NCBI GenBank assembly: GCA_017454915.1
Contig: JAFTCC010000064.1
Coordinates: 91,322 to 155,321 of the forward strand
Direction: 5' to 3'
Length of the DNA: 64,000 nucleotides
From: Paludibacteraceae bacterium
Lineage (GTDB): Bacteria; Bacteroidota; Bacteroidia; Bacteroidales; Paludibacteraceae
The notes beneath the pieces are model-generated. The model was not told the DNA's origin. It was given only the letters and a program-made list of their open reading frames with translations, and ran no database searches. Position numbers and translations under genes: made by a program. This document shows positions 1,151 to 58,640 of this stretch, piece after piece. Within the stretch, counting starts at the first letter, position 1. Each line of letters begins with the position of its first letter.

Positions 1151-2413
1151 TTGGCAACAGCAATTGAATTCAACCACGTCAGCAAGCAATATCGTCTCGG
1201 TCTTGTCAGTACCGGCACGCTTCGCAACGACCTTCACCGCTGGTTTGTGACCAGCGTGCTTGGCAAAGAAGACCCGTACTTAAAAATCGGCGAAACTAAT
1301 GACCGTAGCACTAAGGGCACGTCGGAATACGTGTGGGCACTCAAAGACATCCATTGCAACGTTGAGCAAGGCGACGTTGTGGGCATCATAGGCAAAAACG
1401 GGGCAGGAAAATCAACACTGCTCAAACTGCTGAGCCGCGTCACGGCCCCCACGCTTGGCACCATCCGCGCCAAAGGGCGCATCGCATCGCTGCTGGAAGT
1501 CGGCACTGGCTTCCATAGCGAGATGACAGGAAGAGAAAACATTTACCTCAACGGAGCCATTTTGGGCATGACGAAAGCGGAGATAGACCGCAAACTTGAT
1601 GAAATCATCGACTTCTCGGGCTGTGAGAGATACATCGATACTCCGGTAAAACGATACAGCAGCGGTATGACAGTACGCCTCGGATTTGCCGTGGCGGCAC
1701 ATCTCGACCCCGAAATACTCGTAGTGGACGAAGTGCTTGCGGTCGGTGATGCTGAATTCCAGAAAAAAGCCATTGGCAAGATGCAGGACGTGTCGAAAGG
1801 AGAGGGCAGAACAGTGCTTTTTGTCAGCCATAACATGGCTTCAATCAGGGCATTGTGCCACTCCGGCATATTGCTCGAAAACGGACAGATACGAACCACA
1901 GGACCCATCAATGATGTTGTGGACACATACCTTGCCGAACAATTCCAAGATGCAGACAAACTCACCGACATCATTAGTTTCTGCGCCAATGGGCTCAAAG
2001 TCAACAACTTCCTGCTCAACAACCAGTCTGCCAACGCACTGCAGATAGAGCCGCTGAAGGGCGAAACCACAATAGACGTACACGTTGAAGGCGAGCTGGA
2101 GGAGGATATGCGAATAGACGTCGAAGCACGCCTCTATGACAAGAACCACGTTCTGCTGGCACACTACAGCCCATCGCACATGATAGGCTCTTGCCCTGTG
2201 CGCAAAGCAGGCAAATTAACCATCGACCGCACCATACACTTGCCTGAAAACATCACATGCGGAACATATTACCTCGACTTGTCGCTTGCCGAGCCGCGCG
2301 TCGCATACAAAGTGCAGCTCTCGCAACCCATCAAAATCGTAACAGGAGGCAAGTTGGGCGACAGCGGTCTCAGTTTCGACTATGCCGGCAACGGAATGCT
2401 GATTCTTAACTGA
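1151..2413 (+). CDS. polysaccharide/O-antigen export ABC transporter ATP-binding protein (Wzt/TagH-like) with C-terminal extension
   Basis: Walker A GKNGAGKSTLLKLL, ABC signature YSSGMTVRLGFA, Walker B ILVVDEVLAVGD. A roughly 170-aa C-terminal domain is typical of Wzt glycan-recognition domains. TTG start. Confidence 0.85.
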   Translation: MATAIEFNHVSKQYRLGLVSTGTLRNDLHRWFVTSVLGKEDPYLKIGETNDRSTKGTSEYVWALKDIHCNVEQGDVVGIIGKNGAGKSTLLKLLSRVTAPTLGTIRAKGRIASLLEVGTGFHSEMTGRENIYLNGAILGMTKAEIDRKLDEIIDFSGCERYIDTPVKRYSSGMTVRLGFAVAAHLDPEILVVDEVLAVGDAEFQKKAIGKMQDVSKGEGRTVLFVSHNMASIRALCHSGILLENGQIRTTGPINDVVDTYLAEQFQDADKLTDIISFCANGLKVNNFLLNNQSANALQIEPLKGETTIDVHVEGELEEDMRIDVEARLYDKNHVLLAHYSPSHMIGSCPVRKAGKLTIDRTIHLPENITCGTYYLDLSLAEPRVAYKVQLSQPIKIVTGGKLGDSGLSFDYAGNGMLILN

Positions 2414-3591: not shown

Positions 3592-3620
3592 AAAAAGTTG
3601 CAGATTTCAATAAAAAACAA

Positions 3621-3628
3621 TAACTTTG
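3621..3628 (+). promoter_or_regulatory. Bacteroidetes -7 promoter box (TAACTTTG)
   Basis: TAACTTTGcgtATG. The box ends 3 nt before the ATG at 3632, giving a leaderless configuration. Confidence 0.45.
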
Positions 3629-3631
3629 CGT

Positions 3632-4990
3632 ATGCTTTACAGAACGATACTCAAAGATTTGGATTTATGGGCTGCAAAACCCAACAGAAAACCGCTTGTG
3701 CTTAGAGGCGCGCGACAAGTGGGGAAAACGTATGCGGTAAAGGAATTTGCAAAAAAATTCGATACATTTTTATACATCAATTTCGAAAAGCCTACAAACC
3801 GTGCAGTATTTGACAATTTCATTTCCCTTGATGATACCCTACTCAAACTTTTTGCTCTGCACAGCATAGAAGAAAAGCAAGGCAGAACTCTTATTTTCTT
3901 TGACGAAATACAATATTGTGGCGAAGCAATAAGACAATTAAGGTATTTCTATGAAGAGAGACCCGAATTATATGTCATTGCGGCTGGTTCGCTATTGGAA
4001 ACATTATTGAACGTAAAAATCAGTTTCCCGGTAGGCCGGGTTGAATATTTGGCAATGCGTCCGATGAATTTTGCCGAATACTTGGATGCTATAGGCAAAG
4101 AAATGATTCGCCGTTTAATAGAGGAAAATCCAGAGAACAGCCAAAACCTGCATAACTCGTTGATGGCGGACTTCCAAACCTACGCTGTCATCGGAGGTAT
4201 GCCAGAAGTAGTAGCGCAATTCGCAAACACTCATAATATAGAAAGTTTGAGAACCGCTTTTGAGTCACTTATAACGAGTTACAAGGACGATGTTGAAAAA
4301 TACGCCACAAACAAAACTCAAGTTTCAATACTCAGGTTTCTCATTGATAACTGTTGGCTCGCCGCGGCCGAACGTATCAGCCTCGGAAATTTCGCAGGAT
4401 CAGAATATAAAACGCGTGAAATGAAAGAGGCATTCACGACATTGCAAAAGGCTATGCTTGTGGAGTTAGTCTATCCAAATGACAACACCGAACTGCCACT
4501 GCTGCCACAAATGACACACAGGCCCAAATTATTGACAATTGACATAGGCCTTACAAACTTTGTCGCAAACGTGCAAACCGACATCTTTTCCAACAAAGAC
4601 CTTCTACAGGCTTGGAGAGGAAAAATAGCAGAACAAATTGTAGGGCAAGAACTTTTAGCTTTGAACAACCATATCGATGTAAAAAGATACTTTTGGAGTA
4701 GAACAAAATCCGAAGCGGAAGTGGATTTCGAACACATATTCCATGGCATTGTTGTTCCTATCGAGGTCAAAGCCGGACACAACAGCCATCTTCGTTCACT
4801 ACATGAATTTATGGACAACAGCAAGTGCCAAATCGCCATAAGGGTATGGTCTGAACCATTTCAAAAAGACATTGTTACCACACGCAATGGCAAGGAATTC
4901 CTTCTGTTGAGCATACCGTTTTACCTTGTAAGTTTCATCAATCAAATTCTCGCTAACTACATTTCTAACCAACTCGCAACCACAAAGTAA
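3632..4990 (+). CDS. AAA+ ATPase with DUF4143-type C-terminal domain
   Basis: Walker A GARQVGKT and Walker B LIFFDEIQ; the size and architecture are typical of the AAA_14/DUF4143 family. I prefer ATG 3632 to the TTG 3626 used by the ORF track. Confidence 0.8.
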   Translation: MLYRTILKDLDLWAAKPNRKPLVLRGARQVGKTYAVKEFAKKFDTFLYINFEKPTNRAVFDNFISLDDTLLKLFALHSIEEKQGRTLIFFDEIQYCGEAIRQLRYFYEERPELYVIAAGSLLETLLNVKISFPVGRVEYLAMRPMNFAEYLDAIGKEMIRRLIEENPENSQNLHNSLMADFQTYAVIGGMPEVVAQFANTHNIESLRTAFESLITSYKDDVEKYATNKTQVSILRFLIDNCWLAAAERISLGNFAGSEYKTREMKEAFTTLQKAMLVELVYPNDNTELPLLPQMTHRPKLLTIDIGLTNFVANVQTDIFSNKDLLQAWRGKIAEQIVGQELLALNNHIDVKRYFWSRTKSEAEVDFEHIFHGIVVPIEVKAGHNSHLRSLHEFMDNSKCQIAIRVWSEPFQKDIVTTRNGKEFLLLSIPFYLVSFINQILANYISNQLATTK

Positions 4991-5007
4991 TGATGGTATC
5001 ACACATG

Positions 5008-5895
5008 TCAAGTCTTACATAATTTACATTTAACCAAAACAATATAGAAAAACAGCAAGGAGAACGATATTAAATAATACATAGCAGTGTTGTGAACAAA
5101 GTCTTTTAACACAACGATAGGCACCATGTGCCATAAATATACATTTAAGCTATGTCTGCCTATGTAACATAGAACATTATTGTGGGGCAATAAATCTCTC
5201 TTAATAGAGGGATATAGAAAAAAAACAATTATTGATAATAACAATAAAAAAGAAATCAGTTCGCTACGAAAAAAAGAATATTTTTTAACTAACAACAACA
5301 CTGGGAAATATAATAATAACACCAGTCTATATGCATGTTTTAATAATCGATCTATATCTAAATGATTTTTTAAATATAATCCCAAAGCGAAATACGGCAG
5401 TTGTTTACAATCGCACCATCTCGGCAATGAGTTTGGCGGGCAAACTTTTAACAAAACTATCCACAATAATGATAAAAACACCAAAATCAAGTATGGCTGT
5501 TTTTTTGTCCTAAAAAAAACATATACTGTTAAAACATACGAAAACAATGTCGGGACATACCACAAATGATACCATGGATAATATAACACTTCAAATGCCT
5601 TACTCCATGTAGGATCAAACATAATAAGATACATGAAAAATACTACAAAAGCTATCAACCACATTTTTATCATTCTATTCCAATACTTAAAAAACAGGTC
5701 ACGCATAGTCATATGTGACAATTTTTCTACATCAATCAAGTAGCCACTCACAAACATAAAGAGAGGCATGTGAAATGAATAGATGACATAGCGAAAAACA
5801 TTTTGCTCTAGTGAGCCTAAAAGTACATGTCCAATTATTACACATAGTATAAGAAAACCCTTCACAGTATCAATTGAATAATTCCTACAACTCAT
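5008..5895 (-). CDS. membrane O-acyltransferase (acyltransferase family 3)
   Basis: 295 aa and polytopic. N-terminal VKGFLILCVIIGHV motif. Strongly AT-rich. Confidence 0.7.
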   Translation of the reverse strand: MSCRNYSIDTVKGFLILCVIIGHVLLGSLEQNVFRYVIYSFHMPLFMFVSGYLIDVEKLSHMTMRDLFFKYWNRMIKMWLIAFVVFFMYLIMFDPTWSKAFEVLYYPWYHLWYVPTLFSYVLTVYVFFRTKKQPYLILVFLSLLWIVLLKVCPPNSLPRWCDCKQLPYFALGLYLKNHLDIDRLLKHAYRLVLLLYFPVLLLVKKYSFFRSELISFLLLLSIIVFFLYPSIKRDLLPHNNVLCYIGRHSLNVYLWHMVPIVVLKDFVHNTAMYYLISFSLLFFYIVLVKCKLCKT

Positions 5896-5943
5896 AACAG
5901 ATTAAATAAATTTTTGTTCGCTTGGAGAAAAAAAGTCACACTA

Positions 5944-7467
<1,524 letters not shown>

Positions 7468-7471
<4 letters not shown>

Positions 7472-8232
7472 TTTTTGTTTTTTTTAATTTGTTCTTTCAT
7501 CGCTTTGTAGTAATTAGTATGACATTCCAAGTAAGCCACAACATCATTAATTTCTGAAGGATCGCGCCCCAAATCAATAATGCCAGCATATATTTCTCTT
7601 AGCATATTAAAATCATCAATCGTATCGAGAGTCATCCTAATATTCTGTTTATTCTCTATTTCACATGGGATTTTCAATAATTTGCAATCAAAAATATCTC
7701 TGTGAGAATAAATGAAATTAGTAACATGCTCGTGATAAATAGCTTCTGTGGTCATTATATTGATTTTTTTCAACGCTTCTACTTTCACCGCTTCACACCA
7801 AAAACCATAATGAGTCTTAATAGTTGGGATTCCACTACTTGTCGCATAGCAAATGTAATCCGCAACAGAGCTATCAAACTCGTTGCACAATTGAGCCACA
7901 GACGATATACTTAAAAAAGGGTTGTCTGCACATATTCTGATTATTTTATTATAGCCATAAAAATCTGAAGCGTCTATAAAACGCTTCAAAACATCAGTTT
8001 CATCACCTCTAAAAACCATGCAGCCATGCCGCAAAGTTATTCCTTCCACAAGATCATCACTTTGATTGGTCGTCGTTGCTACAACAATTTTATTGGAATT
8101 AAAAACAGACGACAACTTAAGCAATAATATATCAAGCACACAATTGTCTTGATAAAACGGTAAAACTATTTTTTTAGGCAATCGTGAAGAACCTGTTCGT
8201 GCTTGAATAATTATACCTGTTTTTTCATGCAT
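7468..8232 (-). CDS. cytidylyltransferase-family protein (CMP-nonulosonate synthetase / SpsF-like)
   Basis: IIQARTGSSRLPKKI is the N-terminal motif of the acylneuraminate cytidylyltransferase/SpsF family. 254 aa. Confidence 0.7.
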
Positions 8233-8239
8233 AGTAAGC

Positions 8240-9331
8240 TTATGATTGATTTAGTAAGTTTATGATTGATTTACCATTATTAAATTTTGCCATATCAACT
8301 CGTTTCCCACTCGTTACTTCATCCCATTCTGACAGTTCTTTGTAACCTAACACATTACAAAAGTCAACTATGTTACTCTTAATAAAGTTCAATTCATTAA
8401 ACAAAGAAAACAAAAAAAGTGGCACGACACCCTTATATGCCAATTTAATTAAAGTCGATGAATACAACGCAGCTGCGCAACCCACATCATACTTGTCAAT
8501 AATCTCTTCTACTATTTCTTTCGTTGAGATAAATTGCACGTTATTATAATGAGAGCAGTATTCTTTTAGCTGCGCACTCGTTTCGGTATCTTCCTCACGA
8601 GGATGACATTTAACATATAGTAACTTGAACTTTTCTGCCAAATTACTAATACATTGCACGTCTATTTCAAAACTATTTGGCCCGACTGGTTGAGTTAAAA
8701 AAATACAACATTCCATATCTCTGCCACTCATTTTTATTTCCCTCTTCCTTAAATATTCTACCTTTATATTACGAATTATAGAAATGGACGTAAAAAAACA
8801 TGATCCAGTATAATACTTATCAGACAACATGGCATACATTTCATTCCCTGCGAAATAAGGATTAAAACCTCGTAAGCCATAAAGAGCCATATAAAGGTAC
8901 TTTAGAACATACCAGCGTTTAGGAATTGACGTAGATGGTGAGTTGTAGTAGATGTACGAAGCTATACCGTCCTCAATCAGATAGACGCGACATCCTCTGC
9001 TATAAAACATATCTATGCAGAACATGTTCATCAGCTCGCACTCGGTAAAAACGAACAAGGTGTCGTTTCTGGTCGGACGGAGCGCATCCAACTGCCTCCG
9101 TTTGCGTAAATTGTCGCGGTGAATATCAATCAGTTTGCTTAATCTTGACGGTGCCTGCCTCTCAAGAACCTGGCACCGTTCAAAAGTGTATTGCATAGCA
9201 AATGGCAAATCGTGCGGCACTTCCATACGGTACGGGACACTGATTAGCGCACATTTGTCATAACCAATTTCGGATGCCAACAATTTGACATCATATAAAT
9301 GAAAATCATTATTTACAAGAAAATATATCAC
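8240..9331 (-). CDS. sialyltransferase-like glycosyltransferase, paralog A
   Basis: 363 aa with a GTG start. Ordered motifs are LIEDG (D/E-D/E-G), CHP (HP) and YSST (S-S/T), as in bacterial GT-B sialyltransferases. It is a paralog of 12105-13190. Confidence 0.5.
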   Translation of the reverse strand: MIYFLVNNDFHLYDVKLLASEIGYDKCALISVPYRMEVPHDLPFAMQYTFERCQVLERQAPSRLSKLIDIHRDNLRKRRQLDALRPTRNDTLFVFTECELMNMFCIDMFYSRGCRVYLIEDGIASYIYYNSPSTSIPKRWYVLKYLYMALYGLRGFNPYFAGNEMYAMLSDKYYTGSCFFTSISIIRNIKVEYLRKREIKMSGRDMECCIFLTQPVGPNSFEIDVQCISNLAEKFKLLYVKCHPREEDTETSAQLKEYCSHYNNVQFISTKEIVEEIIDKYDVGCAAALYSSTLIKLAYKGVVPLFLFSLFNELNFIKSNIVDFCNVLGYKELSEWDEVTSGKRVDMAKFNNGKSIINLLNQS

Positions 9332-9363
9332 TTGATTAACACAATTTTTACTTCACCTATAAC

Positions 9364-9389
9364 AAACGACCCTTTTTCGCAGGTCAATG
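9364..9389. repeat. inverted repeat, left copy (candidate recombination site)
   Basis: AAACGACCCTTTTTCGCAGGTCAATG. It has an internal dyad GACC-N10-GGTC centred on TT at positions 13/14. Confidence 0.9.
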
Positions 9390-9555
9390 ATGCTATATTT
9401 ATTACCATATAACAAACTTTTAACTATTATGACTTCATTTCATTGTGCGGAATTTTGGGCGTTTTCATTGGCTAAGACATAACATATATAAACGCCAAAA
9501 TATTTCCACCCTATTATCGCTTACTTTCATATCAACAATAAACTTAAATGAAATT

Positions 9556-10161
9556 ATGTTTTACGGATACATTCGAGTATCTACTGACTCACAAACAGTA
9601 GAAAACCAAAGATTTGAAATCATGCATTTTTGCGCAGCACACAACATTATAATAAACGGCTGGATAGAAGAAACAGCCAGTGGCGTAATGAGTTACAATA
9701 AACGACAACTTGGTTCTCTATTGCAAAAAATTCAAAAAGAAGACACTATAATTTGTTCAGAATTGTCTCGGCTCGGGCGCAATCTTTTTATGATTATGGA
9801 AATTCTGAACATCTGCATGACCAAAGAGTGCCGTGTGTGGACAATCAAGGACAACTACAGGCTTGGAGATGACATACAGAGTAAGGTGCTGGCCTTCGCT
9901 TTTGGTTTGTCAGCCGAGATAGAAAGAAATTTAATTAGCCAGCGCACTAAAGAAGCGTTAGCAAGAAAGCGCGCTGAAGGTGTACAACTTGGAAGGCCGA
10001 AAGATAGAAAAACATCTCAAAGCGCACATAAACTCTATCCTCAAGAGGGCTTAATAAAACGTTTGAGGGCAGAAGGTGTATCATTTGCGCAGATAGGCAG
10101 GTTTCTGAAAGTAAACAAAGAAACCGTCAGAAAATACTATCACAGCTTTATTGAAACTTAA
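9556..10161 (+). CDS. serine recombinase, resolvase/invertase type (Hin/Gin/Mpi-like)
   Basis: 201 aa. YIRVSTDSQ (catalytic Ser), SRLGR, AEIERNLISQRTKEAL, and a C-terminal HTH (VSFAQIGRFLKVNKETVRKY). The ATG at 9556 is preferred over the upstream alternative start at 9445. Confidence 0.85.
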   Translation: MFYGYIRVSTDSQTVENQRFEIMHFCAAHNIIINGWIEETASGVMSYNKRQLGSLLQKIQKEDTIICSELSRLGRNLFMIMEILNICMTKECRVWTIKDNYRLGDDIQSKVLAFAFGLSAEIERNLISQRTKEALARKRAEGVQLGRPKDRKTSQSAHKLYPQEGLIKRLRAEGVSFAQIGRFLKVNKETVRKYYHSFIET

Positions 10162-10262
10162 TAGTGGACTGCTACATACGGCTTTTATTCATTTTTACTC
10201 AATTTGAGGCATCTAAATAATTGTTTTTCCTTTCTAAAATTGCAGGTTTAACAAATTATTCA

Positions 10263-10270
10263 TAACTTTG
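10263..10270 (+). promoter_or_regulatory. Bacteroidetes -7 promoter box (TAACTTTG) at inner edge of right repeat
   Basis: TAACTTTG immediately abuts IR-R (10271). It reads outward across the repeat into neuA (ATG 10329). Confidence 0.55.
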
Positions 10271-10296
10271 CATTGACCTGCGAAAAAGGGTCGTTT
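10271..10296. repeat. inverted repeat, right copy (candidate recombination site)
   Basis: CATTGACCTGCGAAAAAGGGTCGTTT is the exact reverse complement of 9364-9389. Confidence 0.9.
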
Positions 10297-10328
10297 TTTT
10301 TATACTGCTCGTAATAACTTCTAATATA

Positions 10329-11015
10329 ATGGGTAAAACACTGATAGTCATACCCGCCCGTGGAGGCAGCAAGGGCATTCCGCACAAAAACCGACGGTCT
10401 CTTGCCGGGCGTCCGCTGATTGCGTATTCCATTCAAACCGCATTAGACATCGCAACCCCGGACGACATCTGCATATCAACCGACGACCCGGAAATCGCAC
10501 AAATTGCCGAGGACATGGGCGTCAAAGTGCCTTTTCTGCGTCCTGCTGAACTGGCAAGCGACACGGCAGGTTCTTACGAAGTGCTACTCCATGCCGTCAA
10601 CTTTTACGAGCAAATGGGACGGCACTATGACACGCTGTTGCTGCTTCAGCCCACATCACCCTTGCGGACCACGCAACACGTGCGCGAAGCTATTGAACTA
10701 TATAAACAAGGAATTGACATGGTGGTCAGCGTGCAGCCTGCAAAAACCAATCCTTTCTACAACTGCTTCAAGGAAAATGCCGAAGGATACATTGAGCCGC
10801 TGCTCGCCAACAATTTGACACGCCGGCAAGATGCGCCAACAGTGTACGAATATAACGGGGCTATCTATTTCATCAACATTGAAAGCCTGAAAAAAATGCC
10901 GCTCGGGAAAATGAAACATATCGTAAAATATGTAATGGATGACATCTCATCCGTTGACCTTGACACCCAGCTCGACTGGCAAATAGCCGAATTCTTGCTC
11001 AAAAATAACCAATAA
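10329..11015 (+). CDS. neuA: CMP-N-acylneuraminate (nonulosonate) cytidylyltransferase
   Basis: IPARGGSKGIPHKN, LLLQPTSPLR and YEYNGAIY are classic NeuA/LegF motifs. Confidence 0.85.
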   Translation: MGKTLIVIPARGGSKGIPHKNRRSLAGRPLIAYSIQTALDIATPDDICISTDDPEIAQIAEDMGVKVPFLRPAELASDTAGSYEVLLHAVNFYEQMGRHYDTLLLLQPTSPLRTTQHVREAIELYKQGIDMVVSVQPAKTNPFYNCFKENAEGYIEPLLANNLTRRQDAPTVYEYNGAIYFINIESLKKMPLGKMKHIVKYVMDDISSVDLDTQLDWQIAEFLLKNNQ

Positions 11016-11025
11016 ATAACACACT

Positions 11026-12075
11026 ATGTTTTTCGCATACGAAAACCATACTATAAATTTTGACGCCACCATCCACAATGCCCTGAACGTTCTCAACAAA
11101 TTGTGCGACAGGAAGATGCTGCTCTTTGTGCTTGACAACGAACAGAGGTTATGGGGAACGTTGACTGACGGCGACATACGCAGGGCATTTCTTAAAGGTT
11201 TTGTCCTGTCTGACACTGTGAAGGACATCGCTTTCCGTGAGTTCAAATTTTTGAGCAAAAACGGCACTCACGTTCAGGCAATTTCCGCATTCCGCAAAAT
11301 GGGACTCTCGCTGTTGCCCGTGTTAGACGATGACGGACGTATCGTGGCGGTGCACGACATTTCAGACGGCAAATCCATACTGCCCCTTGATGCCGTCATC
11401 ATGGCCGGGGGCAAAGGAGAGCGCCTGAGACCACTAACAAACAACACGCCAAAACCACTGCTGCCGATAGCAGGGAAACCTATCATCGACTATAATATTG
11501 AAGCGCTGATGCGAAACGGCATCACTAACATCAATGTTACTGTCAACTACCTCAAGGAACAACTTGCCGAGCATTTTTCCAGGCCATTCAACGGCATCCA
11601 AGTTAAGTGTGTCGAAGAACCAAGATTTCTGGGCACCGCAGGGGCGATGCGCTTTGTCAAGGACTTTGAGAACGACGTCATACTGCTGATGAACTCTGAC
11701 ATTTTCACTAACATCTGCTACGAGGATTTTTACCTATACTTTGCGGAAACGCAAGCTGACATGGCTGTCGCCACACTGCCCTACTCTATCTCCGTGCCAT
11801 ACGGCATTGTGGATTTGGATGGCGAAAAAGTACAGGGATTGAGCGAAAAACCGACGTTCACCTACTATGCCAACGCCGGCATTTACCTGCTCAAGCGGCA
11901 AATGGTGGACCTGATACCAACCAACGAGGTTTTCAACGCCACTGACCTGATGAACAGTATAATAGACAAAGGTCTCAAAGTTGTGCACTATCCCATAGGC
12001 GGCTATTGGATTGACATCGGCAACAAGGACGAATATAAAAAGGCGCAAGAGATGGCAAAATTCATCGCACAATAG
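11026..12075 (+). CDS. CBS-domain sugar-phosphate nucleotidyltransferase (PtmE-like)
   Basis: An N-terminal CBS pair, then AVIMAGGKGERLRPLTNNTPKPLLPI (NTP-transferase G-rich loop). Confidence 0.75.
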   Translation: MFFAYENHTINFDATIHNALNVLNKLCDRKMLLFVLDNEQRLWGTLTDGDIRRAFLKGFVLSDTVKDIAFREFKFLSKNGTHVQAISAFRKMGLSLLPVLDDDGRIVAVHDISDGKSILPLDAVIMAGGKGERLRPLTNNTPKPLLPIAGKPIIDYNIEALMRNGITNINVTVNYLKEQLAEHFSRPFNGIQVKCVEEPRFLGTAGAMRFVKDFENDVILLMNSDIFTNICYEDFYLYFAETQADMAVATLPYSISVPYGIVDLDGEKVQGLSEKPTFTYYANAGIYLLKRQMVDLIPTNEVFNATDLMNSIIDKGLKVVHYPIGGYWIDIGNKDEYKKAQEMAKFIAQ

Positions 12076-12104
12076 CACATAAGCTTCGGCTCAAATACAG
12101 CATA

Positions 12105-13190
12105 ATGGTTTATTTTCTTGTCAACAACGACTTTCATGTTCACGATGTCAAAAATTTGGCAGCGCAACTGGGATATGGCAATTGCTCGCTGATAAGCGTA
12201 CCCTACCGCATGGATGTACCCCGTGAACTGCCATTTGCTCACCAATATGTTTTTGAGCGCTGCGAATTCCTGCTCAAACAAGTGCCTTCTAACCTGCGCA
12301 AACTATTAAGCATTCACAGGGATAATTTCCGCAAAAGGAAGCAGTTGGATGCACTCCGCCCGACCAGAAACGACACCTTGTTCGTTTTTACCGAATGTGA
12401 GTTGATGAACATGTTCTGCATCAGGAAGTTTCACAAGGTAGGTGCCAAGATATTCCTCGTCGAAGACGGCATGGCATCGTACATATATTTTAACCGAGAC
12501 TCTGACCGCATTCCATTAAGGTGGAAACTCGTTACACCCGTTTACAAACTCCTTTACGGCCTCAAGGGTTTTTATCCTTACTACGCCAGCTCTATGCCCT
12601 ACCACATGCTTTCAGAAAAGTACTACAGGGGAGCATGTTTCTTCACACCCATCAGCATCAGGCGCAAACTGCCTGTTATTTGGCTTGACAATGGCGAGAA
12701 GCCTCTCCGTGGACTTGACCAGGAAAACGCTATGGTGCTGACACAGCCGCTCGGGACAGAGTCGCTCAAAATAGACAAAACCATACTCGATAACGTCCAC
12801 GCCAACTTCAAGCGCATTTACCTGAAGTGCCACCCGGATGAATTTCGCGACCAGAAAACCTACAATGCGCTCAAGCAGCTATGCGCACAGTACGACAACG
12901 TCGAGTTTGTGGAAAGCGGTGCTATCATGGAAGACCTGATAGAGCTATACCGCGTAGGATATGCAATTTCGCCATTCTCTTCCACACTGCCGCGATTGCA
13001 GAGCAGAGGCGTAATTCCTGTTTATGTCTATCACCTGCTCAACGACATTAAAGCCGTGAGCATAGATAACTACTTGAAACTAATAAACTATAATTTCGCC
13101 ACTAAGTGGGAGGACATCAAACCCGGGTACAGCAGCTTTGCCAATAAGGTTGATGGCCTCAAAACCTCAATAAAAGATTTAATCAGTTGA
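12105..13190 (+). CDS. sialyltransferase-like glycosyltransferase, paralog B
   Basis: 361 aa. Motifs LVEDG, CHP and FSST in the same order as paralog A. The stretch QLDALRPTRNDTLFVFTECELMNMFCI is identical to A. Confidence 0.5.
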   Translation: MVYFLVNNDFHVHDVKNLAAQLGYGNCSLISVPYRMDVPRELPFAHQYVFERCEFLLKQVPSNLRKLLSIHRDNFRKRKQLDALRPTRNDTLFVFTECELMNMFCIRKFHKVGAKIFLVEDGMASYIYFNRDSDRIPLRWKLVTPVYKLLYGLKGFYPYYASSMPYHMLSEKYYRGACFFTPISIRRKLPVIWLDNGEKPLRGLDQENAMVLTQPLGTESLKIDKTILDNVHANFKRIYLKCHPDEFRDQKTYNALKQLCAQYDNVEFVESGAIMEDLIELYRVGYAISPFSSTLPRLQSRGVIPVYVYHLLNDIKAVSIDNYLKLINYNFATKWEDIKPGYSSFANKVDGLKTSIKDLIS

Positions 13191-14398
13191 TTATGTTCAA
13201 TTTGACTTCATTCATAAAGACCAATGTCACAGAGCGTTGCAATAGCATGTTTCGCCCCGACATTGAGCTGCACGACACAGAGTTACGCAACGCGATAAGG
13301 GGGAAAAGGGCTTGCGTGATAGGTGGAGCGGGCAGCATAGGCTCAGCTTTCATAAGCGAACTGCTCGCCTATGAGCCAAGCCAACTGGTAGTGGTTGACT
13401 TGAGCGAAAACGGTTTGGCTGAACTCACGCGCGACCTGCGCTCGTCCGGCAAGTTTGTGCCACAAGACTACCGCACTTACACACTTGATTTCGCGCACCC
13501 CGTCTTCAAACGCATATTCGAGGAAAACAAAGGTTTCGACATCGTTGCCAACTTCTCCGCGCACAAGCATGTGCGTTCAGAACGCGATAAATACTCGGTA
13601 GAACTGCTGCTGGAAAACAACGTCATCAAGGCCAAGACGCTACTTGACCTGCTCACCGAGTTTCCGCCCGAGCACTTTTTCTGCGTCAGCACCGACAAGG
13701 CCGCCAACCCCGTTAACATCATGGGAGCAAGCAAACGCATACTCGAAGACCTCATCATGGCATACTCCAACATATACCCTGTTACCACCGCACGGTTTGC
13801 CAATGTGGCGTTCTCCAACGGCTCTCTGCCCGACGGCTGGACACACAGGCTGCTGAAACGCCAGCCGCTTGCGGCACCGTCGGATGTGAAACGCTATTTC
13901 GTGTCACCGCAAGAAAGCGGTCAAATTTGCCTGCTCGCCTGCGTGCTCGGAAAAAGCGGAGAAGTTTTCTTCCCTAAACTTGAGGAAAACCAGATGAAAA
14001 CGTTCTCCGAAATTTGCGACGACTTTGTCCGCGCGCACGGGTTCACGCCTAAGCGCTTCAAGTCAGACGAAGAAGCTCGGGACTTTGCTGCAACGATGAA
14101 AGACGATTGCAGGGAATATCCGGTTGTTTATTCAACCAGTAACACCACCGGCGAGAAAGCCTACGAGGAGTTTTACGTCAGCGGCGAAACAGTCAACAAT
14201 GAACGGTTCGCAAGCCTCGGTGTGGTCGAAAAATCAGCAAGGAAAGACAGGGCTGCTGTTGACAGTTTCCTTTGTGAACTCAAAAGCACATTTGACAAGC
14301 CCGACTTCACAAAACAACAAATCGTAGATGCCATCAAGGCTTTCCTGCCCAACTTTGAACACGAAGAAAAAGGCACCAACCTTGACCAAAAAATGTAA
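13187..14398 (+). CDS. CapD/PseB/LegB-like NAD-dependent nucleotide-sugar 4,6-dehydratase (soluble form)
   Basis: VIGGAGSIGSAF Rossmann motif and STDKAANPVNIMGASKR (Polysacc_synt_2 catalytic region). 4-nt overlap with the upstream gene. Confidence 0.7.
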   Translation: MIMFNLTSFIKTNVTERCNSMFRPDIELHDTELRNAIRGKRACVIGGAGSIGSAFISELLAYEPSQLVVVDLSENGLAELTRDLRSSGKFVPQDYRTYTLDFAHPVFKRIFEENKGFDIVANFSAHKHVRSERDKYSVELLLENNVIKAKTLLDLLTEFPPEHFFCVSTDKAANPVNIMGASKRILEDLIMAYSNIYPVTTARFANVAFSNGSLPDGWTHRLLKRQPLAAPSDVKRYFVSPQESGQICLLACVLGKSGEVFFPKLEENQMKTFSEICDDFVRAHGFTPKRFKSDEEARDFAATMKDDCREYPVVYSTSNTTGEKAYEEFYVSGETVNNERFASLGVVEKSARKDRAAVDSFLCELKSTFDKPDFTKQQIVDAIKAFLPNFEHEEKGTNLDQKM

Positions 14399-14417
14399 CG
14401 TAATAAAGCAATATAGT

Positions 14418-15008
14418 ATGTCAAACGGCAATGACATAATACTTCTTGGCGGTGGAGGACACTGCAAATCGGTGATTGACGCGGCAGAAAGCGTCGGCTA
14501 CAACATCTTGGGCATACTCGACAAACCCGAGTTGGTCGGCACGCGCATTCTGAACTACGAAATAATAGGCACCGACGACGATATTCCACACTATGCGGAT
14601 AAGGCTCAATTTGTGATTACCGTCGGGCAAATCAAGTCACCGGCCATACGTCAAAAACTTGCACAACTCGTTGAGCGCGCCGGTGGGCGTTTTGCAACAG
14701 TCATTGCCAGCGACGCATACGTGAGCAAATACGCACACATTGGCGAAGGCACCGTAGTGTTACACAAAGCCATGGTCAACGCTGACGCGCATATCGGCAG
14801 ACACTGCATCATCAACACCATGGCTAACATCGAGCACGACGTTAAAATAGGTGATTTCTGCCACATCTCCACAGGGGCGATGGTCAACGGAGGTTGTATC
14901 ATAGAAGACGAAACATTTGTAGGGAGCGGAGCCGTGCTGCACCAATGTGCGCAGATTAGCAAAAGCACAATCGTGCCTGCGGGCACTATAGTTAGAAAAA
15001 ACGCATGA
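14418..15008 (+). CDS. neuD: NeuD/PglD-family sugar N/O-acetyltransferase (left-handed beta-helix)
   Basis: ILLGGGGHCKSVID N-terminus and C-terminal hexapeptide repeats. The ATG at 14418 is preferred because the ORF-track start at 14328 overlaps the previous gene. Confidence 0.75.
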   Translation: MSNGNDIILLGGGGHCKSVIDAAESVGYNILGILDKPELVGTRILNYEIIGTDDDIPHYADKAQFVITVGQIKSPAIRQKLAQLVERAGGRFATVIASDAYVSKYAHIGEGTVVLHKAMVNADAHIGRHCIINTMANIEHDVKIGDFCHISTGAMVNGGCIIEDETFVGSGAVLHQCAQISKSTIVPAGTIVRKNA

Positions 15009-16006
15009 AACACTCGATAGTCATAGCAGAGGCTGGAGTCAACCACAATGGCTCTATCGATATGGCAAAACGGCTCATTGAAGCGGCGGCTGAAGCTAAA
15101 GTCGATTATGTCAAATTCCAGACTTTTAAGGCAGAAAAACTTGTGACAAAAGATGCCGTGCAAGCCGAATATCAACACAAAAATTCGGAGGCGGAAACGC
15201 AATACGCAATGCTGAAAAAATTGCAGCTGTCAGAAGAACAGCACAAAGAACTCATTATGCATTGCAAACGATGCGGGGTGAAGTTCCTATCCACAGCATT
15301 TGACTTTGACAGCATCACTTTTTTGCACGATCTGAAACTCAGACTCTGGAAGATTCCTTCTGGTGAAATTACCAATTATCCCTATCTTAAGCGTATCGCA
15401 CAATATGGCGAACCTGTCATCCTGTCAACAGGCATGAGCACTATTGACGACATAACAGCAGCAATTAAAGCGCTGTGCATCAACGGATTAAAAAAGGAGC
15501 AAATAACACTGCTTCATTGCACGACCCAGTACCCCACCCCCATGCAGGACGTGAACCTGCGCGCCATGCTGACATTGCGCGATGAGTTTGGCGTAAGCGT
15601 TGGTTACTCAGACCATACCCGCGGCATTGAAGTGCCTATAGCTGCTGTTGCGCTCGGGGCAGAGGTTATCGAGAAACATTTCACACTTGACCGTTCGCTT
15701 CCCGGTCCCGACCACAAGGCCTCATTGGAACCCGATGAGTTAAAGGCTATGGTTGATGCAATACGAAACATCGAACAGGCTATGGGGGATGGCGTTAAAC
15801 GCGTGTCAGAATCGGAAAAAGAAAACATCGCTGTCGCACGGAAAAGTATTGTAGCCGCAAAAAAAATACAAAAGGGAGAAGTGCTCACCGAAGATAACAT
15901 AACCGTCAAGCGACCAGGAACCGGCATCTCGCCAATGCGCTGGGAAGAAATTATTGGAACAAAAGCCATACGGGATTTTGCAGTTGACGAACTGATAGAA
16001 CTATGA
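15005..16006 (+). CDS. neuB: N-acylneuraminate/legionaminate synthase (NeuB family)
   Basis: IAEAGVNHNGS, YSDHT, and a C-terminal SAF domain (VKRPGTGISP). Confidence 0.85.
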   Translation: MKHSIVIAEAGVNHNGSIDMAKRLIEAAAEAKVDYVKFQTFKAEKLVTKDAVQAEYQHKNSEAETQYAMLKKLQLSEEQHKELIMHCKRCGVKFLSTAFDFDSITFLHDLKLRLWKIPSGEITNYPYLKRIAQYGEPVILSTGMSTIDDITAAIKALCINGLKKEQITLLHCTTQYPTPMQDVNLRAMLTLRDEFGVSVGYSDHTRGIEVPIAAVALGAEVIEKHFTLDRSLPGPDHKASLEPDELKAMVDAIRNIEQAMGDGVKRVSESEKENIAVARKSIVAAKKIQKGEVLTEDNITVKRPGTGISPMRWEEIIGTKAIRDFAVDELIEL

Positions 16007-17166
16007 GGAAAATTTGCGTCATAACAGGCACACGTGCCGAATTCGGACTGCTTAGCGGACTGATGCGACTTATTCAAGCCTCAAATCAATGCCGTCTTCA
16101 AGTGATAGCAACCAACATGCACCTGTCGGAGCGCTACGGCAACACTTATAAGGAAATAGAAAACAGCGGATTTTCAATAGATTATAAGGTTCCCATCCTT
16201 GATGATAACACACCTGACGACTCCACTTCAACAATATCCGCCATGGCGCGCGCTTTGACTGGATTCGCAAATGCATACGATAGTTTGCAGCCTGATTTAC
16301 TTGTGGTCTTGGGCGACAGGTTCGAGATGCTGTCCGTGGCAGAAGCAGCACTCATTAAACAAATACCGATAGCGCATATTCATGGCGGAGAACTTACTTA
16401 TGGAGCATACGATGACGCTATCCGTCACTCAATCACAAAGATGAGCCATCTGCACTTCACCGCAACCGAGGAATACAGGAAACGTGTCATTCAGATGGGC
16501 GAGCAGCCCGACAAGGTTTTCTATGTGGGTGCGCTCGGAGTGGAAAACATAAAAAAAAAGGAACTGCTGTCAAAGGCAGAACTCGAGGCTTCAATTGATT
16601 TCACTGTTGACGAAAAGACCCTGCTTGTAACATACCACCCGGTAACATTGTCATGCTCTAATCCTCTGGAAGACATCAATGCGCTACTCTGCGCCCTGGA
16701 CGAGCATCCAGAACTGCGGGTCATTTTCACCATGCCCAACTCCGATACCGGCGGGCAACTCATTGCCGATGCAATATACAATTACGCCAAGCGTAACGCG
16801 CAACGGATAAGAGCCTTCAAGTCGCTGGGAATGCGCCGATACCTGTCTGTGATGAAATATGCAGGCGCCGTAGTAGGTAACTCGTCAAGCGGATTACTGG
16901 AAACGCCATCGTTCGGAATACCAACGCTTAACATAGGAAATAGGCAACAAGGGCGCATCGCTGCAGAGAGCGTACACAACTGCGGAACATCGGAAAAAGA
17001 AATCTCCGAAGGGTTAAAACATATTCTGTCTGCAGATTTCCGCAAAATGTGCAAAACTGTGCAAAACCCATACGAAAAAGCCGACACGGCGGAAAGCATT
17101 TTCAAGGTCATTTCAACAATTCCGTTAGACAATCTCATCCAAAAGCATTTTTATGATTTAGGATGA
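16003..17166 (+). CDS. neuC: hydrolysing UDP/GDP-N-acetylhexosamine 2-epimerase (NeuC/LegG family)
   Basis: KICVITGTRAEFGLL, VLGDRFE and HIHGGE are NeuC-type epimerase motifs. Confidence 0.85.
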   Translation: MRKICVITGTRAEFGLLSGLMRLIQASNQCRLQVIATNMHLSERYGNTYKEIENSGFSIDYKVPILDDNTPDDSTSTISAMARALTGFANAYDSLQPDLLVVLGDRFEMLSVAEAALIKQIPIAHIHGGELTYGAYDDAIRHSITKMSHLHFTATEEYRKRVIQMGEQPDKVFYVGALGVENIKKKELLSKAELEASIDFTVDEKTLLVTYHPVTLSCSNPLEDINALLCALDEHPELRVIFTMPNSDTGGQLIADAIYNYAKRNAQRIRAFKSLGMRRYLSVMKYAGAVVGNSSSGLLETPSFGIPTLNIGNRQQGRIAAESVHNCGTSEKEISEGLKHILSADFRKMCKTVQNPYEKADTAESIFKVISTIPLDNLIQKHFYDLG

Positions 17167-27763: not shown

Positions 27764-28239
27764 TTATTTTATTTTTCCCAGATTGATATGCCAACTTATA
27801 TTTTTGTCGCAATCTTTTACCGAGCCAAAAAATGGAGCCAATAATGCATTAATGCCTCCTTTGGAAGGATCAAAGTCGTAAACATCTTCTGCAATTGTAT
27901 CTCCATTGCTGTCTTCTTTGAAATTATAGATTGTAATATCTGTGCCCTTAAACCCAAATCGGTCATTAGACCGACAAGTTTGGGTCAGTGCTTACAAAAA
28001 GTAGTCTATTATTGTCTTTTTTGTTTCTTTTTGGCTTATTTTTGCTTTTTGCTCGGTCATTATGCCCGCATAACTCCCTCGTTCAAAGACAAAAATCCGC
28101 TCAAAAATAATTCAAAAAATCCTAATAATTCTAATGACCGATTTGGGTTAAACTTAGAGCTGTCATTGGGGGCATTATATCTGTCCAATTTACATGATTT
28201 ATTAGCGTGGAGCGGACACGACACGACGGACGGGCACAA
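27764..28239 (-). pseudogene. small ORF split by a MITE-like insertion
   Basis: The minus-strand frame ...CKLDRYNAPNDSSKF (right of the element) joins in frame to KGTDITIYNFKEDSNGDTIAEDVYDFDPSKGGINALLAPFFGSVKDCDKNISWHINLGKIK* (left) once the element and one TTAAA copy are removed. Confidence 0.35.
27953..28147. mobile_element. MITE-like non-autonomous element (195 bp)
   Basis: 17-bp perfect terminal inverted repeats CCCAAATCGGTCATTAG (27953-27969) and CTAATGACCGATTTGGG (28131-28147). They are flanked by a direct TTAAA repeat (27948-27952 and 28148-28152). No coding capacity. Confidence 0.6.
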
Positions 28240-46463: not shown

Positions 46464-46797
46464 ACATGTGTTGCCTCTGGGGCTGGAATTGATTTGATGT
46501 TTGCGCTGAAAACCGCGGTAGCGGTGAAACAATGTTAGCCGTGGGTGAGTGAGCGGCAGCATCAAAAACCGCGGTAGCGGTGAAACAATGTTAGCCGTGG
46601 GTGAGTGAGCGGCAGCGAACGTAACCCACGGTACGCATTGCACACCCTATTCAAGTCGCGTAAGCGGCGGCACACTATTCCGGTTTTTTGTGCCGCCCCT
46701 ATGGGGCTAAATGAATTGACGATTATTCCGTTGTCCGTGGGTTTCGCTTCGCTCCACCCACGGCTAATTTTGTGCCGCCCTTACGGGGCTGTTCGCC
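46464..46797. repeat. composite REP-like element (module Y with internal 56-bp tandem duplication, then module X)
   Basis: Homologous to 54700-54970 with the modules in the opposite order. Tandem copies lie at 46509-46560 and 46565-46616. The hairpin-forming CCGTGGGT...ACCCACGG and the motif TTTTGTGCCGCCCCTAYGGGGCT are present. Confidence 0.85.
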
Positions 46798-46824
46798 AAT
46801 TATTGCAATATCAGAAAAAAAACG

Positions 46825-46832
46825 TAACTTTG
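46825..46832 (+). promoter_or_regulatory. Bacteroidetes -7 promoter box (TAACTTTG)
   Basis: AAAAAAAACGTAACTTTGCG lies 60 nt upstream of the ATG at 46892. Confidence 0.55.
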
Positions 46833-46891
46833 CGCTTTATAAGCCTTAATAAGCGACATTAGCACAAAAAACTGAAAATAAACTCAAAAAC

Positions 46892-54699: not shown

Positions 54700-54970
54700 G
54701 AAAATGGATTGGCCTTGTTCCGTGGATTCCACCCACGGCTATTTCTGTGCCGCCCCTACGGGGCTGTTTACTGCTGCACCATGTGTCGCGGGGCTGAAAT
54801 TGATTTGATGTTTCCGCCGAAAACCGCGTTAGCGGTGAAACAACATTAGCCGTGGGTAAGTGAGCGACAGCGAACGATAACCCACGGTACAAAGCGCACA
54901 ACATTTTCAAGCCGCGTTAGCGGCGTCACAACATTTTGGCCGTTTTTTTGTGCCCCCCCTACGAGGCTAA
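54700..54970. repeat. composite REP-like element (module X then module Y)
   Basis: 54715-54775 matches 46733-46797, and 54779-54970 matches 46464-46712. Confidence 0.85.
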
Positions 54971-57529: not shown

Positions 57530-58640
57530 TCTTTTAACGAACACGAATTGAACGAATTGTTACCTCTACGGAGTAATGGAGTTTAGGAGGTTTTCGGTAC
57601 GAATTACACGAATAACACGAATTATTTTCATGAACGGCGAAGAGATAAATTCGTTAAATTTGTGTAATTTGTGAACATGAAAAAATCCACGAACACGGAT
57701 AAACGCGGATTTGTTTCGGTACGAATAACACGAATTTCACGAACACGGATAAACACGGGTTACCGCATAGCGGTTTTCGGATGATAGACCGTGAAACGGT
57801 CATCTCTATGGTAACCGCATGTCGCGCCAGCGACTTGCGGTGGTTCACGCCATGACGATGCACGCTGACGGCGTGCCCTTATCCGCGCGTTTTGTCGCGT
57901 GGTGATTGCGATTTGACGGGTGTGGCAATATGGCACGCTTCCAGCGTGCTGTCACATATTCCGCCCAAACCGCAGGTGGCTCCGCTACCTGCGGTTACTC
58001 TATATGTGACCGCGCTGCGGTCTGAAGCGTCAGGCATTTTTTCGAAAATTCCTAACGGAATAATAATTGAATCCTCTATATTTCTATCATTCGGAATGCC
58101 ATACGGGCAATGTCGGCAACATTTTGCGTCACCGCTGACGCGGTTTTTTGTGGGTTGGCGTTGTCCGTGGGCGGCGCAAGCTTGCCCACGGCTATTTTGT
58201 GCCGCCACTCCGTGGCTGTCATTACCGCGTAGCGATTTCCGAATGATAGCAAATCGTTTCCAAAAAATCATTTACCCTATCGGGGTTTCCGAATGATAGC
58301 TTTACGCCACCCCTTAATCATTTACCCCATCGGGGTTTTCGAAAATTCCCGCTCGGCTGCGAAGCAGACGCTTTTAAGCGAAGCGAAAAAGAACGGAATA
58401 ATATATATTATCCGCTTCATTGCTATCATTCGAAATGCCATACGGGCAAGGCCCACGGCTATTTTGTACCGCCCCTACGGGGCTGTCCGACTTTGTCCTG
58501 CTTTGTCCTGCTTTGTCCGATTTTGTCCTGCTTGTTGCTCCACTGATGTACAACAGATGCTCCACAAATGTGCAACTATAAAACAAGCGTCAGCATTGTT
58601 TGGCAAAAAAAATCAAAAAATCCACAATAAATGACTATAA
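57530..58640. repeat. repeat-dense non-coding spacer
   Basis: Multiple short duplicated blocks occur here: GGTACGAATWACACGAAT, CACGAACACGGATAAAC, TTCCGAATGATAGC, AATCATTTACCCYATCGGGGTTT, TCATTCGRAATGCCATACGGGCAA, and two module-X copies. Confidence 0.8.
58491..58530. repeat. 10-bp tandem repeat (4 units)
   Basis: Units: CTTTGTCCTG CTTTGTCCTG CTTTGTCCGA TTTTGTCCTG. Confidence 0.9.

Follow-up and report, generated by a model that had tools for sequence, protein, structure and literature searches.

A cassette with its own Mpi-family invertase and one outward promoter between two nonulosonic acid operons: a candidate either/or switch in a rumen Bacteroidales genome

How can a bacterium that carries two back-to-back operons for surface sugars direct transcription to only one of them at a time? 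This question is raised by a 64-kb stretch of DNA from the genome of a rumen Bacteroidales (Paludibacteraceae), which is referred to here as the window. A cassette of 933 bp (9364-10296) lies between the two operons, of which the left one is of the KDN type and the right one of the legionaminic/neuraminic type, and two inverted repeats within it enclose the gene of a DNA invertase and a promoter. The phase-variable glycans of gut Bacteroidales are understood to be governed mainly by many independent ON/OFF flips of promoters that depend on a trans-acting recombinase, with extra regulators ensuring that one capsule is made at a time. We favour, with fair confidence, the view that the cassette is a Hin-style, self-encoded switch of the Mpi family that hands its one promoter to either operon. 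The invertibility of the cassette is well supported, and we infer from the sequence that expression of the two operons would be either/or and mutually exclusive. The parts of the cassette are as follows, in window coordinates.

9364-9389, plus strand: left inverted repeat (IRL), 26 bp, perfect; its conserved core at 9367-9386 is CGACCCTTTTTCGCAGGTCA
9390-9555, no strand assigned: inner-left spacer, the presumed place of the promoter of the invertase gene, without a perfect -7 box facing left
9556-10161, plus strand: Mpi-family serine DNA invertase of 201 aa, inside the segment (Pfam Resolvase, NF009949)
10239-10270, plus strand: outward Bacteroidetes-type promoter, with the -7 box TAACTTTG at 10263-10270 and a -33-like aTTG at 10239-10242, 20 nt upstream
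10271-10296, minus strand: right inverted repeat (IRR), the exact reverse complement of IRL; its core is at 10274-10293

The 26-mer AAACGACCCTTTTTCGCAGGTCAATG is present in exactly two copies in the window, at 9364-9389 (+) and 10271-10296 (-), and the pair can be extended to 32 nt at 94% identity (9358-9389 and 10271-10302). Dinucleotide-preserving shuffles give no match to this repeat, even when 3 mismatches are allowed. The repeats go well past what chance would produce, and the serine recombinase encoded between them is intact. The two arms are 881 bp apart and are separated, in this order, by the 166-nt spacer, the open reading frame of 201 aa, 101 nt and the TAACTTTG box. Each arm contains GACC at positions 5-8 and GGTC at positions 19-22, placed symmetrically around a TT at positions 13-14. 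Three copies of the motif GACC-N10-GGTC are present in the window, where 0.8 would be expected, and the repeat arms account for two of them. No further site resembling the cassette repeat is found in the 64-kb window. GACC and GGTC are the only symmetric elements of the 26-bp site and sit 5 nt from its TT centre, and the half-sites are unlike, CGACCCTTT being outside and TGACCTGCG inside. A preliminary description of this DNA had reported both the perfect repeats and the internal dyad around TT, and both are borne out; its comparison with hix sites holds for the length of 26 bp and the central dinucleotide, but the layout of the half-sites appears to differ, because the two tetranucleotides lie 5 nt off the centre instead of abutting it. 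We regard it as highly probable that the repeats are genuine recombination sites for this invertase.

The promoter is confined to one end of the cassette. The TAACTTTG box at 10263-10270 (+) abuts the inner edge of the right repeat and faces outward. No other perfect TAnnTTTG is present on either strand of 9300-10345; in the window at large, the background is 0.84 per kb for both strands. No perfect outward TAnnTTTG box is found at the left end when both strands of the same interval are read. The nearest candidate there, AAAGTTTG at 9413-9420 (-), has one mismatch and is uninformative because such boxes occur at 12.5 per kb. The 21-mer around the promoter is also found in 13 unrelated metagenome contigs without an invertase in a scan of JGI metagenomes, so that it represents a generic Bacteroidetes promoter sequence and not a marker of the cassette; the JGI metagenome contigs scanned for the 22-mer repeat core gave no match. 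The flanking genes start close to the repeats on both sides, with a GTG at 9331 (-) and an ATG at 10329 (+), each 32 nt outside its own repeat. In favour of the GTG start, the homologous residue is also where the paralogue at 12105 begins. Taking the window species together with its closest relative, which is described below, the flanking genes start 8-41 nt outside the repeats, and there is no room for a promoter between the repeats and the flanking genes in both species. The outward box and the lack of a perfect one on the left had been noticed before and stand as described. The exact 32-nt spacing, to which attention had also been drawn, is true of both sides in the window and is not kept in the relative.

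The invertase matches Pfam Resolvase over residues 3-143 (E-value 7e-32) and has a weak C-terminal HTH_38 match at residues 167-191, in line with its earlier description as a 201-aa resolvase/invertase with a C-terminal helix-turn-helix. Against the NCBIfam model NF009949, the Mpi equivalog, it scores 308.6 bits over residues 1-197, where the cut-off is 272, and an identical protein in a Paludibacteraceae metagenome-assembled genome (MAG) is named 'master DNA invertase Mpi family' by NCBI. Among solved structures, the Gin invertase comes nearest (E-value 7e-11, 45 bits). The alignment with Gin begins at residue 1 and places YIRVS of the window enzyme on YVRVS of Gin, a YxRVS serine motif whose serine we take to be the catalytic Ser9, and the position of the aspartate in LDRLGR of Gin is occupied by a serine in the window enzyme (LSRLGR). 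By these matches, the enzyme is a member of the Mpi 'master invertase' family and only distantly related to the Hin/Gin group. The term 'Hin-like' used in the preliminary description thus suits the layout, which runs repeat, invertase gene, outward promoter, repeat, and does not suit the enzyme. A contrast had also been drawn with Bacteroides loci 'where the Mpi invertase is encoded elsewhere'; it needs rewording because the enzyme of the window is itself an Mpi-family equivalog and sits inside its own invertible segment.

The cassette is conserved in a second species, as sequence comparison indicates. The closest relative of the window locus, L086, comes from another Paludibacteraceae, and its invertase (P0002) is 83% identical to that of the window and is its sister in a neighbour-joining tree. 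In L086, the invertase gene stands between the two copies of a perfect 20-bp inverted repeat, CGACCCTTTTTTGTAGGTCA, at 5728-5747 and 6578-6597. This 20-bp core corresponds to positions 4-23 of the window 26-mer and has the same TT at its centre. Two of its positions are changed relative to the window core (CGC -> TGT), and both changes are found in both arms. The TAACTTTG box is again present, 3 nt inward of the right core, so that each of the two cassettes has one perfect outward box. The region of repeat and promoter (window 10236-10303, L086 6540-6607) is 89.7% identical and the invertase gene 78%, and the inner-left spacer cannot be aligned except for ~25 nt before the invertase ATG. In L086, the flanking gene is 18 nt away on the left; on the right, the distance is 8 nt if counted to the ATG that was called and ~41 nt if counted to the homologous GTG.

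The right junction of L086 is chimeric relative to the window. It consists of the inner-right sequence of the window (24 of 26 nt, including TAACTTTG) and then the repeat, and past the repeat it continues with GGGTCGTTTGTTATA, which is identical to the reverse complement of the outer-left flank of the window and is followed by an orthologue of ST_363, the first gene of the left operon (76% over 579 nt). Homology therefore switches inside the repeat, as expected for a junction formed by site-specific inversion of the cassette. The comparison between the species thus demonstrates, at the level of sequence, a past recombination event with a breakpoint inside the repeat. A comparison of homologous loci in related genomes had been proposed as a check for both orientations, and both are seen when the two species are compared, the promoter end being joined to the opposite flank in L086.

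On this evidence, the switch would work as follows. Dimers of the invertase would bind each 20-26-bp site, cut it with a 2-bp stagger at the asymmetric TT (9376-9377 in IRL), exchange strands and flip the 933-bp segment. In the present orientation, the promoter would read through the right repeat, from a start near 10277, into the legionaminic/neuraminic operon, which includes the transferase gene ST_361, and the KDN operon, which includes ST_363 and has no recognisable promoter, would be silent. A flip would point the promoter at the KDN operon and leave the right operon without one. The predicted junctions of the inverted form are TTCACCTATAAC-AAACGACCCTTTTTCGCAGGTCAATG-CAAAGTTATGAATAATTTGTT on the left and ATATGGTAATAAATATAGCAT-CATTGACCTGCGAAAAAGGGTCGTTT-TTTTTATACTGCTCG on the right. 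The crossover is placed at the TT by deduction, and the promoter is likewise presumed to be active and switching to be ongoing in the species of the window. A cell would alternate in this way between two nonulosonic acids on a surface glycan, and a flip would probably switch the displayed sugar.

Several observations weigh against such a switch. An invertase look-up returned nine contigs of the window species, of which the five with DNA shown are 100% identical and have the orientation of the window, and a contig of a second strain, 99.4% identical, has this orientation too. No inversion within the window species is seen among these six contigs from two strains, a count that leaves out four further long contigs merged by the look-up; with the same four left out, exact-protein look-ups with the invertase and ST_363 gave only contigs in the window orientation. 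All four of the contigs of the L086 species (4/4) share the other orientation. Three Logan contigs run unbroken through both repeats, and any minority orientation in those samples must therefore be rare. The samples that carry the window organism include SRR12529381, SRR12529072, SRR12529388 and SAMN15829934, the last of these assembled as ERZ28654120, together with those behind ERZ28018883 and ERZ14209545; the L086 species is represented in ERZ28593764, ERZ27317964, ERZ27318024 and ERZ28593756. On the side of relatives, the flank of L086 opposite the promoter carries genes for a FUT8-like transferase and a Wzt ABC-transporter ATPase, and the wider gene order is rearranged; because the flanks are rearranged outside the transferase gene, the window and L086 do not form a clean two-state polymorphism at one locus. 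As to the site, the motif of published Mpi repeats, ARACGTTCGTN or GTTCGTTTAA (PMC8375218), is not present in the cassette repeat, the best match being 7 of 10 positions, at the outer repeat end (AAACGACCCT / GGTCGTTTTT, ~7/10). Finally, the activity of the promoter is judged from its consensus, and AAAGTTTG and other one-mismatch boxes could give the left operon weak transcription.

This last point leads to an alternative in which the cassette inverts without acting as an either/or toggle. A second, non-consensus promoter in 9390-9555, or read-through, would drive the operon at the non-promoter end, and a flip would swap a strong promoter for a weak one or toggle one operon while the other stays on. 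Leftward one-mismatch -7 boxes exist both in the window and in L086 (TAACTTTC, the reverse complement of AAAGTTATGTAT at 5834-5845), and the Wzt ATPase gene on the non-promoter side of L086 would be costly to silence fully. However, one-mismatch boxes carry no information at their observed density, and while the promoter at the right end is 90% conserved from one species to the other, the inner-left spacer is not. We consider this alternative unlikely.

An arrangement that is now fixed is less probable again, and we would give it only a slim chance. The repeats would then record past inversions, the promoter would in effect be constitutive for the right operon, and the invertase would act mainly in trans elsewhere, like Mpi of B. 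fragilis. This agrees with the single orientation of every readable contig of the species in two strains and with the global action in trans of the founding member of the family (PMC12632263). However, the arms are identical over 26 bp (20 bp in L086) while the surrounding intergenic DNA has diverged past alignment, and the 64-kb window holds no other repeat-like site. Moreover, orientation was read from consensus assemblies, which cannot reveal minority orientations.

What would be switched is defined by the two operons, which are indeed divergent glycan operons, as had been described earlier. Their genes, together with a segment shared by the two transferase genes, are as follows.

5008-9331, minus strand: left operon, KDN type, 5 genes (Pfam, NF058599 and PDB 3E81 matches)
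8240-9331, minus strand: ST_363, sialyltransferase-like, with weak polysialyltransferase and GT52 matches and EDG and HP motifs
9042-9076, minus strand: 35-bp identical segment in ST_363, with its partner at 12360-12394 (+) in ST_361
7468-8232, minus strand: cytidylyltransferase of the left operon (PF02348)
6428-7471, minus strand: NeuB-type synthase of the left operon (Pfam NeuB 7.5e-61), below the NeuB and PseI equivalog cut-offs
5944-6426, minus strand: KDN-9-phosphate phosphatase (NF058599 equivalog, 238 bits against a cut-off of 180; PDB 3E81, E-value 3.7e-55)
5008-5895, minus strand: acyltransferase-3 of 295 aa, a probable O-acetylase, at the distal end of the left operon
10329-17166, plus strand: right operon, legionaminic/neuraminic type, 7 genes (Pfam, NCBIfam)
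10329-11015, plus strand: cytidylyltransferase of the right operon
11026-12075, plus strand: CBS-nucleotidyltransferase, PtmE-like
12105-13190, plus strand: ST_361, transferase paralogue, 51% identical to ST_363, with EDG and HP motifs
13187-14398, plus strand: 4,6-dehydratase-like
14418-15008, plus strand: PglD-like acetyltransferase
15005-16006, plus strand: NeuB/LegI-type synthase, 519 bits, above the NeuB_NnaB cut-off
16003-17166, plus strand: hydrolysing 2-epimerase

By its gene content, the left operon is a self-contained KDN pathway (phosphatase, NeuB-type synthase and CMP-sugar synthetase) plus a transferase. The structure 3E81 is presumably that of the KDN-9-P phosphatase of B. thetaiotaomicron, and its depositors' label is 'acylneuraminate cytidylyltransferase'. 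The right operon was read against a legionaminic pathway consisting of LegB, LegC, LegH, LegG, LegI and LegF plus PtmE-type formation of a GDP-sugar, and its gene set appears to be of the legionaminic type. However, no aminotransferase (LegC) gene is found in 10329-17166, so that the product may also be of the Neu5Ac type; the homologous operon in another contig (L115) does have this gene. Either LegC is encoded elsewhere in the genome or the product of the right operon is not legionaminic acid. Judged from their genes, the two operons are self-contained alternatives, each with its own paralogous sialyltransferase-like gene. The family of these transferases is tiny, with 5 clusters in 5.8 billion proteins, and a homologue at 33% identity (P0125) stands at the end of a complete operon of the legionaminic-acid type. 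The translations of both ST_363 and ST_361 contain EDG and HP, which correspond to the bacterial sialyltransferase motifs D/E-D/E-G and HP as defined in PMC5420450.

The distal end of the KDN operon is polymorphic. The second strain (L116, ERZ14209545 NODE_61), which is 99.4% identical and was compared with the window over 3618-5915, is without the gene of the AAA_14/DUF4143 ATPase, at 3626-4990 of the window, and without the greater part of the acyltransferase of 295 aa, so that the two strains differ by an insertion or deletion there. In L086, the operon on the non-promoter side starts with the FUT8-like fucosyltransferase and includes Wzt, which has a Wzt_C glycan-binding domain (L086 4813-5709 and 3469-4737). 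The Wzt of the window (1151-2413), which lies outside the switched operons, is 85% identical to that of L086 over 265 aligned residues. This hints at a glycan that is exported by an ABC transporter and may carry the switched sugars as its caps.

The two transferase genes themselves could allow an inversion of another size. A larger segment, from ~9059 to 12377, could invert between the inverted 5' parts of these genes, either through RecA, as in the sap locus of Campylobacter fetus, or through the invertase at pseudo-sites; it would move the promoter along with the right operon's first two genes, and the resulting transferases would be chimeric. The 5' regions form an inverted repeat of 316 nt at 74% identity, within which a patch of ~77 nt (9015-9095 on the minus strand and 12341-12421 on the plus strand) is ~93% identical, compared with ~70% elsewhere, and has the 35-bp identical segment as its core. 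In this patch, ST_363 is 91-96% identical to its paralogue and 42-64% identical to its L086 orthologue, which indicates past recombination between both genes, and two stretches of the core, AAACGAC and GTTCGTTT, are similar to the repeat of the cassette and to Mpi sites in the literature. However, orthology resumes on both sides of the patch, which marks it as a gene-conversion tract and not as the trace of a crossover. Furthermore, there is no GACC-N10-GGTC dyad in the core, the contig of L086 contains the cassette without a second paralogue, and the alternative arrangement is seen in no contig. A larger inversion is therefore very improbable. Logan contigs end at 9047 and 12389 because the inverted identity of 35 bp exceeds the k-mer of the assembler, which we take to be 31.

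That the repeats are IS-like terminal repeats, or outward terminator hairpins that insulate the invertase gene, is hardly credible: each arm read outward does form a hairpin of 5-6 bp followed by a T-rich run (T8 on the right), but the hairpin is weak (-6.9 kcal/mol, z-score -1.2, with 23 of 200 shuffles folding as well or better), no target-site duplication is found at the cassette, we know of no small serine recombinases of this type that act as transposases with terminal repeats, and the presence of the cassette at a homologous transferase junction in two species argues against independent insertion. The repeat arms were accordingly rejected as terminators; the hairpin and T-run might block read-through from the invertase gene, to which we give little weight.

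Bacteroidales have a great many invertases of this family: at least 556 genome matches to the window enzyme were found, and the loci of the best 80 of them were fetched. Most of these 80 loci have nested inverted repeats within the coding sequence of TaqI_C-type methyltransferase modules, with the invertase immediately outside them, which agrees with the reported enrichment of Mpi-family genes beside targets of programmed inversion (PMC9881135). Sugar genes are found near the invertase in none of the best 80 matches (0/80), and repeats enclosing the invertase in one of them. This one is L019 (7796-8645 of JAZREU010000005.1, a Paludibacteraceae MAG), a third self-enclosed cassette, whose invertase is 73% identical to that of the window. 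Its perfect 24-bp repeat GGTCGTTTTTATACGGCAATACAA encloses the invertase, and a SusD-like gene, present as a C-terminal fragment, contains the right arm. A perfect TAACTTTG box stands 22 nt inside the left arm and points outward to a SusC-like gene, and a second perfect box lies inside the invertase gene.

A family-wide site consensus built from the methyltransferase shufflons (GAGCGATTTTGTTCAG, GGACGATTTCTTTAAGCC, ATACGACCGATTCTTCGCGG) was tried and rejected, since it has only an ACGA(CC) core in common with the cassette repeat, with the spacing 1 nt off and 13 of 22 positions matching. No inversion is seen between two homologous contigs whose gene calls differ (L090 and L091); they are collinear at 99.96%. 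A number of contigs (L012, L013, L016, L023, L027, L029, L050, L065, L070, L075, L077, L084 and others) end 25-70 bp past the stop codon of the invertase. In complete homologous loci, the nested inverted repeats of the TaqI_C methyltransferase modules begin 7-30 bp after that stop, and the contig ends probably mark assembly breaks at these repeats.

The window contains further repeats. At 27948-28152, a 23-nt inverted repeat at 96% identity (TTAAACCCAAATCGGTCATTAGA) encloses a 159-nt spacer with a perfect TATTTTTG box at 28037-28044, and a third, hairpin-forming copy beside the left arm includes the GACC-N10-GGTC site at 27969. The element lies between the 3' ends of the convergent rmlD and lipoprotein genes and is of inverton size, with no obvious gene to control. 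It was rejected as a second inverton, being a three-copy, hairpin-like repeat between convergent genes that does not clearly flank a promoter. GC-rich dispersed repeats of the REP type (for example, CCACGGCTAnnnTGTGCCGCC) occupy intergenic DNA at 46508-46877, 54730-54857 and 58081-58444. A segment of 45 nt at 58349-58393 is 84% identical to one inside the L086 cassette (5766-5810). Two independent contigs (L088 and L089) both begin at L086 position 5824, shortly past this REP-like segment, which may be an assembly break. Rfam gives no known RNA family anywhere in the window.

If the preferred reading is correct, mutual exclusion would be achieved by DNA geometry alone, through one promoter and its own Mpi-family invertase. 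No Mpi-family, self-encoded toggle between divergent operons was found in the literature searched, the coverage of which is incomplete. Phase variation from one nonulosonic acid to a different one would also, as far as that literature shows, have its first example here; this class of sugars governs phage adsorption, immune recognition and host mimicry. A still wider proposal is that the cassette is a two-way toggle with which a clonal population alternates its displayed nonulosonic acid, and that L086 alternates another pair of glycan operons in the same manner; we put this at a little short of an even chance. The 'promoter-shuttle' would then be a portable module and not a one-off. If active, the cassette would further provide a compact, self-contained bistable switch of 933 bp for engineering Bacteroides.

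Five known systems resemble the cassette in part. In the H segment of Salmonella, which is ~1 kb long, a site, the hin invertase gene, an outward promoter and a second site follow each other, and the 26-bp hix sites have an asymmetric central dinucleotide. The cassette has the same order of parts, a similar size, 26-bp sites and a small serine recombinase. However, its enzyme is distant, as the match to Gin (E-value 7e-11) indicates, and GACC/GGTC lie 5 nt from the centre, whereas ACC/GGT abut it in hix. Moreover, an operon stands at each end of the cassette, whereas in Salmonella one orientation drives nothing and, as we understand it, the FljA repressor brings about the either/or outcome.

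The invertons controlled by Mpi in B. fragilis share the recombinase family, the association with surface-glycan operons and a TAnnTTTG promoter between inverted repeats. There, Mpi acts in trans on many promoter-only segments, each of which is an ON/OFF switch (PMC12632263), and the promoter segments of B. intestinalis measure 183-186 bp (PMC8375218). In contrast, the cassette has the invertase gene inside its own segment of ~0.9 kb, another repeat sequence, operons on both sides and a predicted either/or outcome. The closest relatives in sequence, at 70-84% identity, are the invertases of the TaqI_C-type methyltransferase (type IIG / BREX-like) shufflons, which are the predominant context in Bacteroidales. 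However, these invertases lie outside the invertible DNA, the repeats are in coding sequence, and protein modules are swapped without any promoter.

In the sapA locus of Campylobacter fetus, a single invertible promoter lies between oppositely oriented homologous genes, of which only one is expressed at any time, and inversion is RecA-dependent and uses repeats in the 5' coding regions. The cassette likewise places a single promoter between inverted paralogues, ST_363 and ST_361, which have a recombined 5' patch, but it has a dedicated invertase and short non-coding sites. Finally, the protein O-glycan of T. forsythia ends in pseudaminic or legionaminic acid depending on the strain, and the paralogous transferases carry the D/E-D/E-G and HP motifs (PMC5420450). 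This organism, also of the Bacteroidetes, thus resembles that of the window in having two alternative nonulosonic acids and paralogous, motif-bearing transferases. However, the choice is fixed for each strain of T. forsythia by its gene content, whereas both pathways are present in one genome in the window, where they flank a putative switch.

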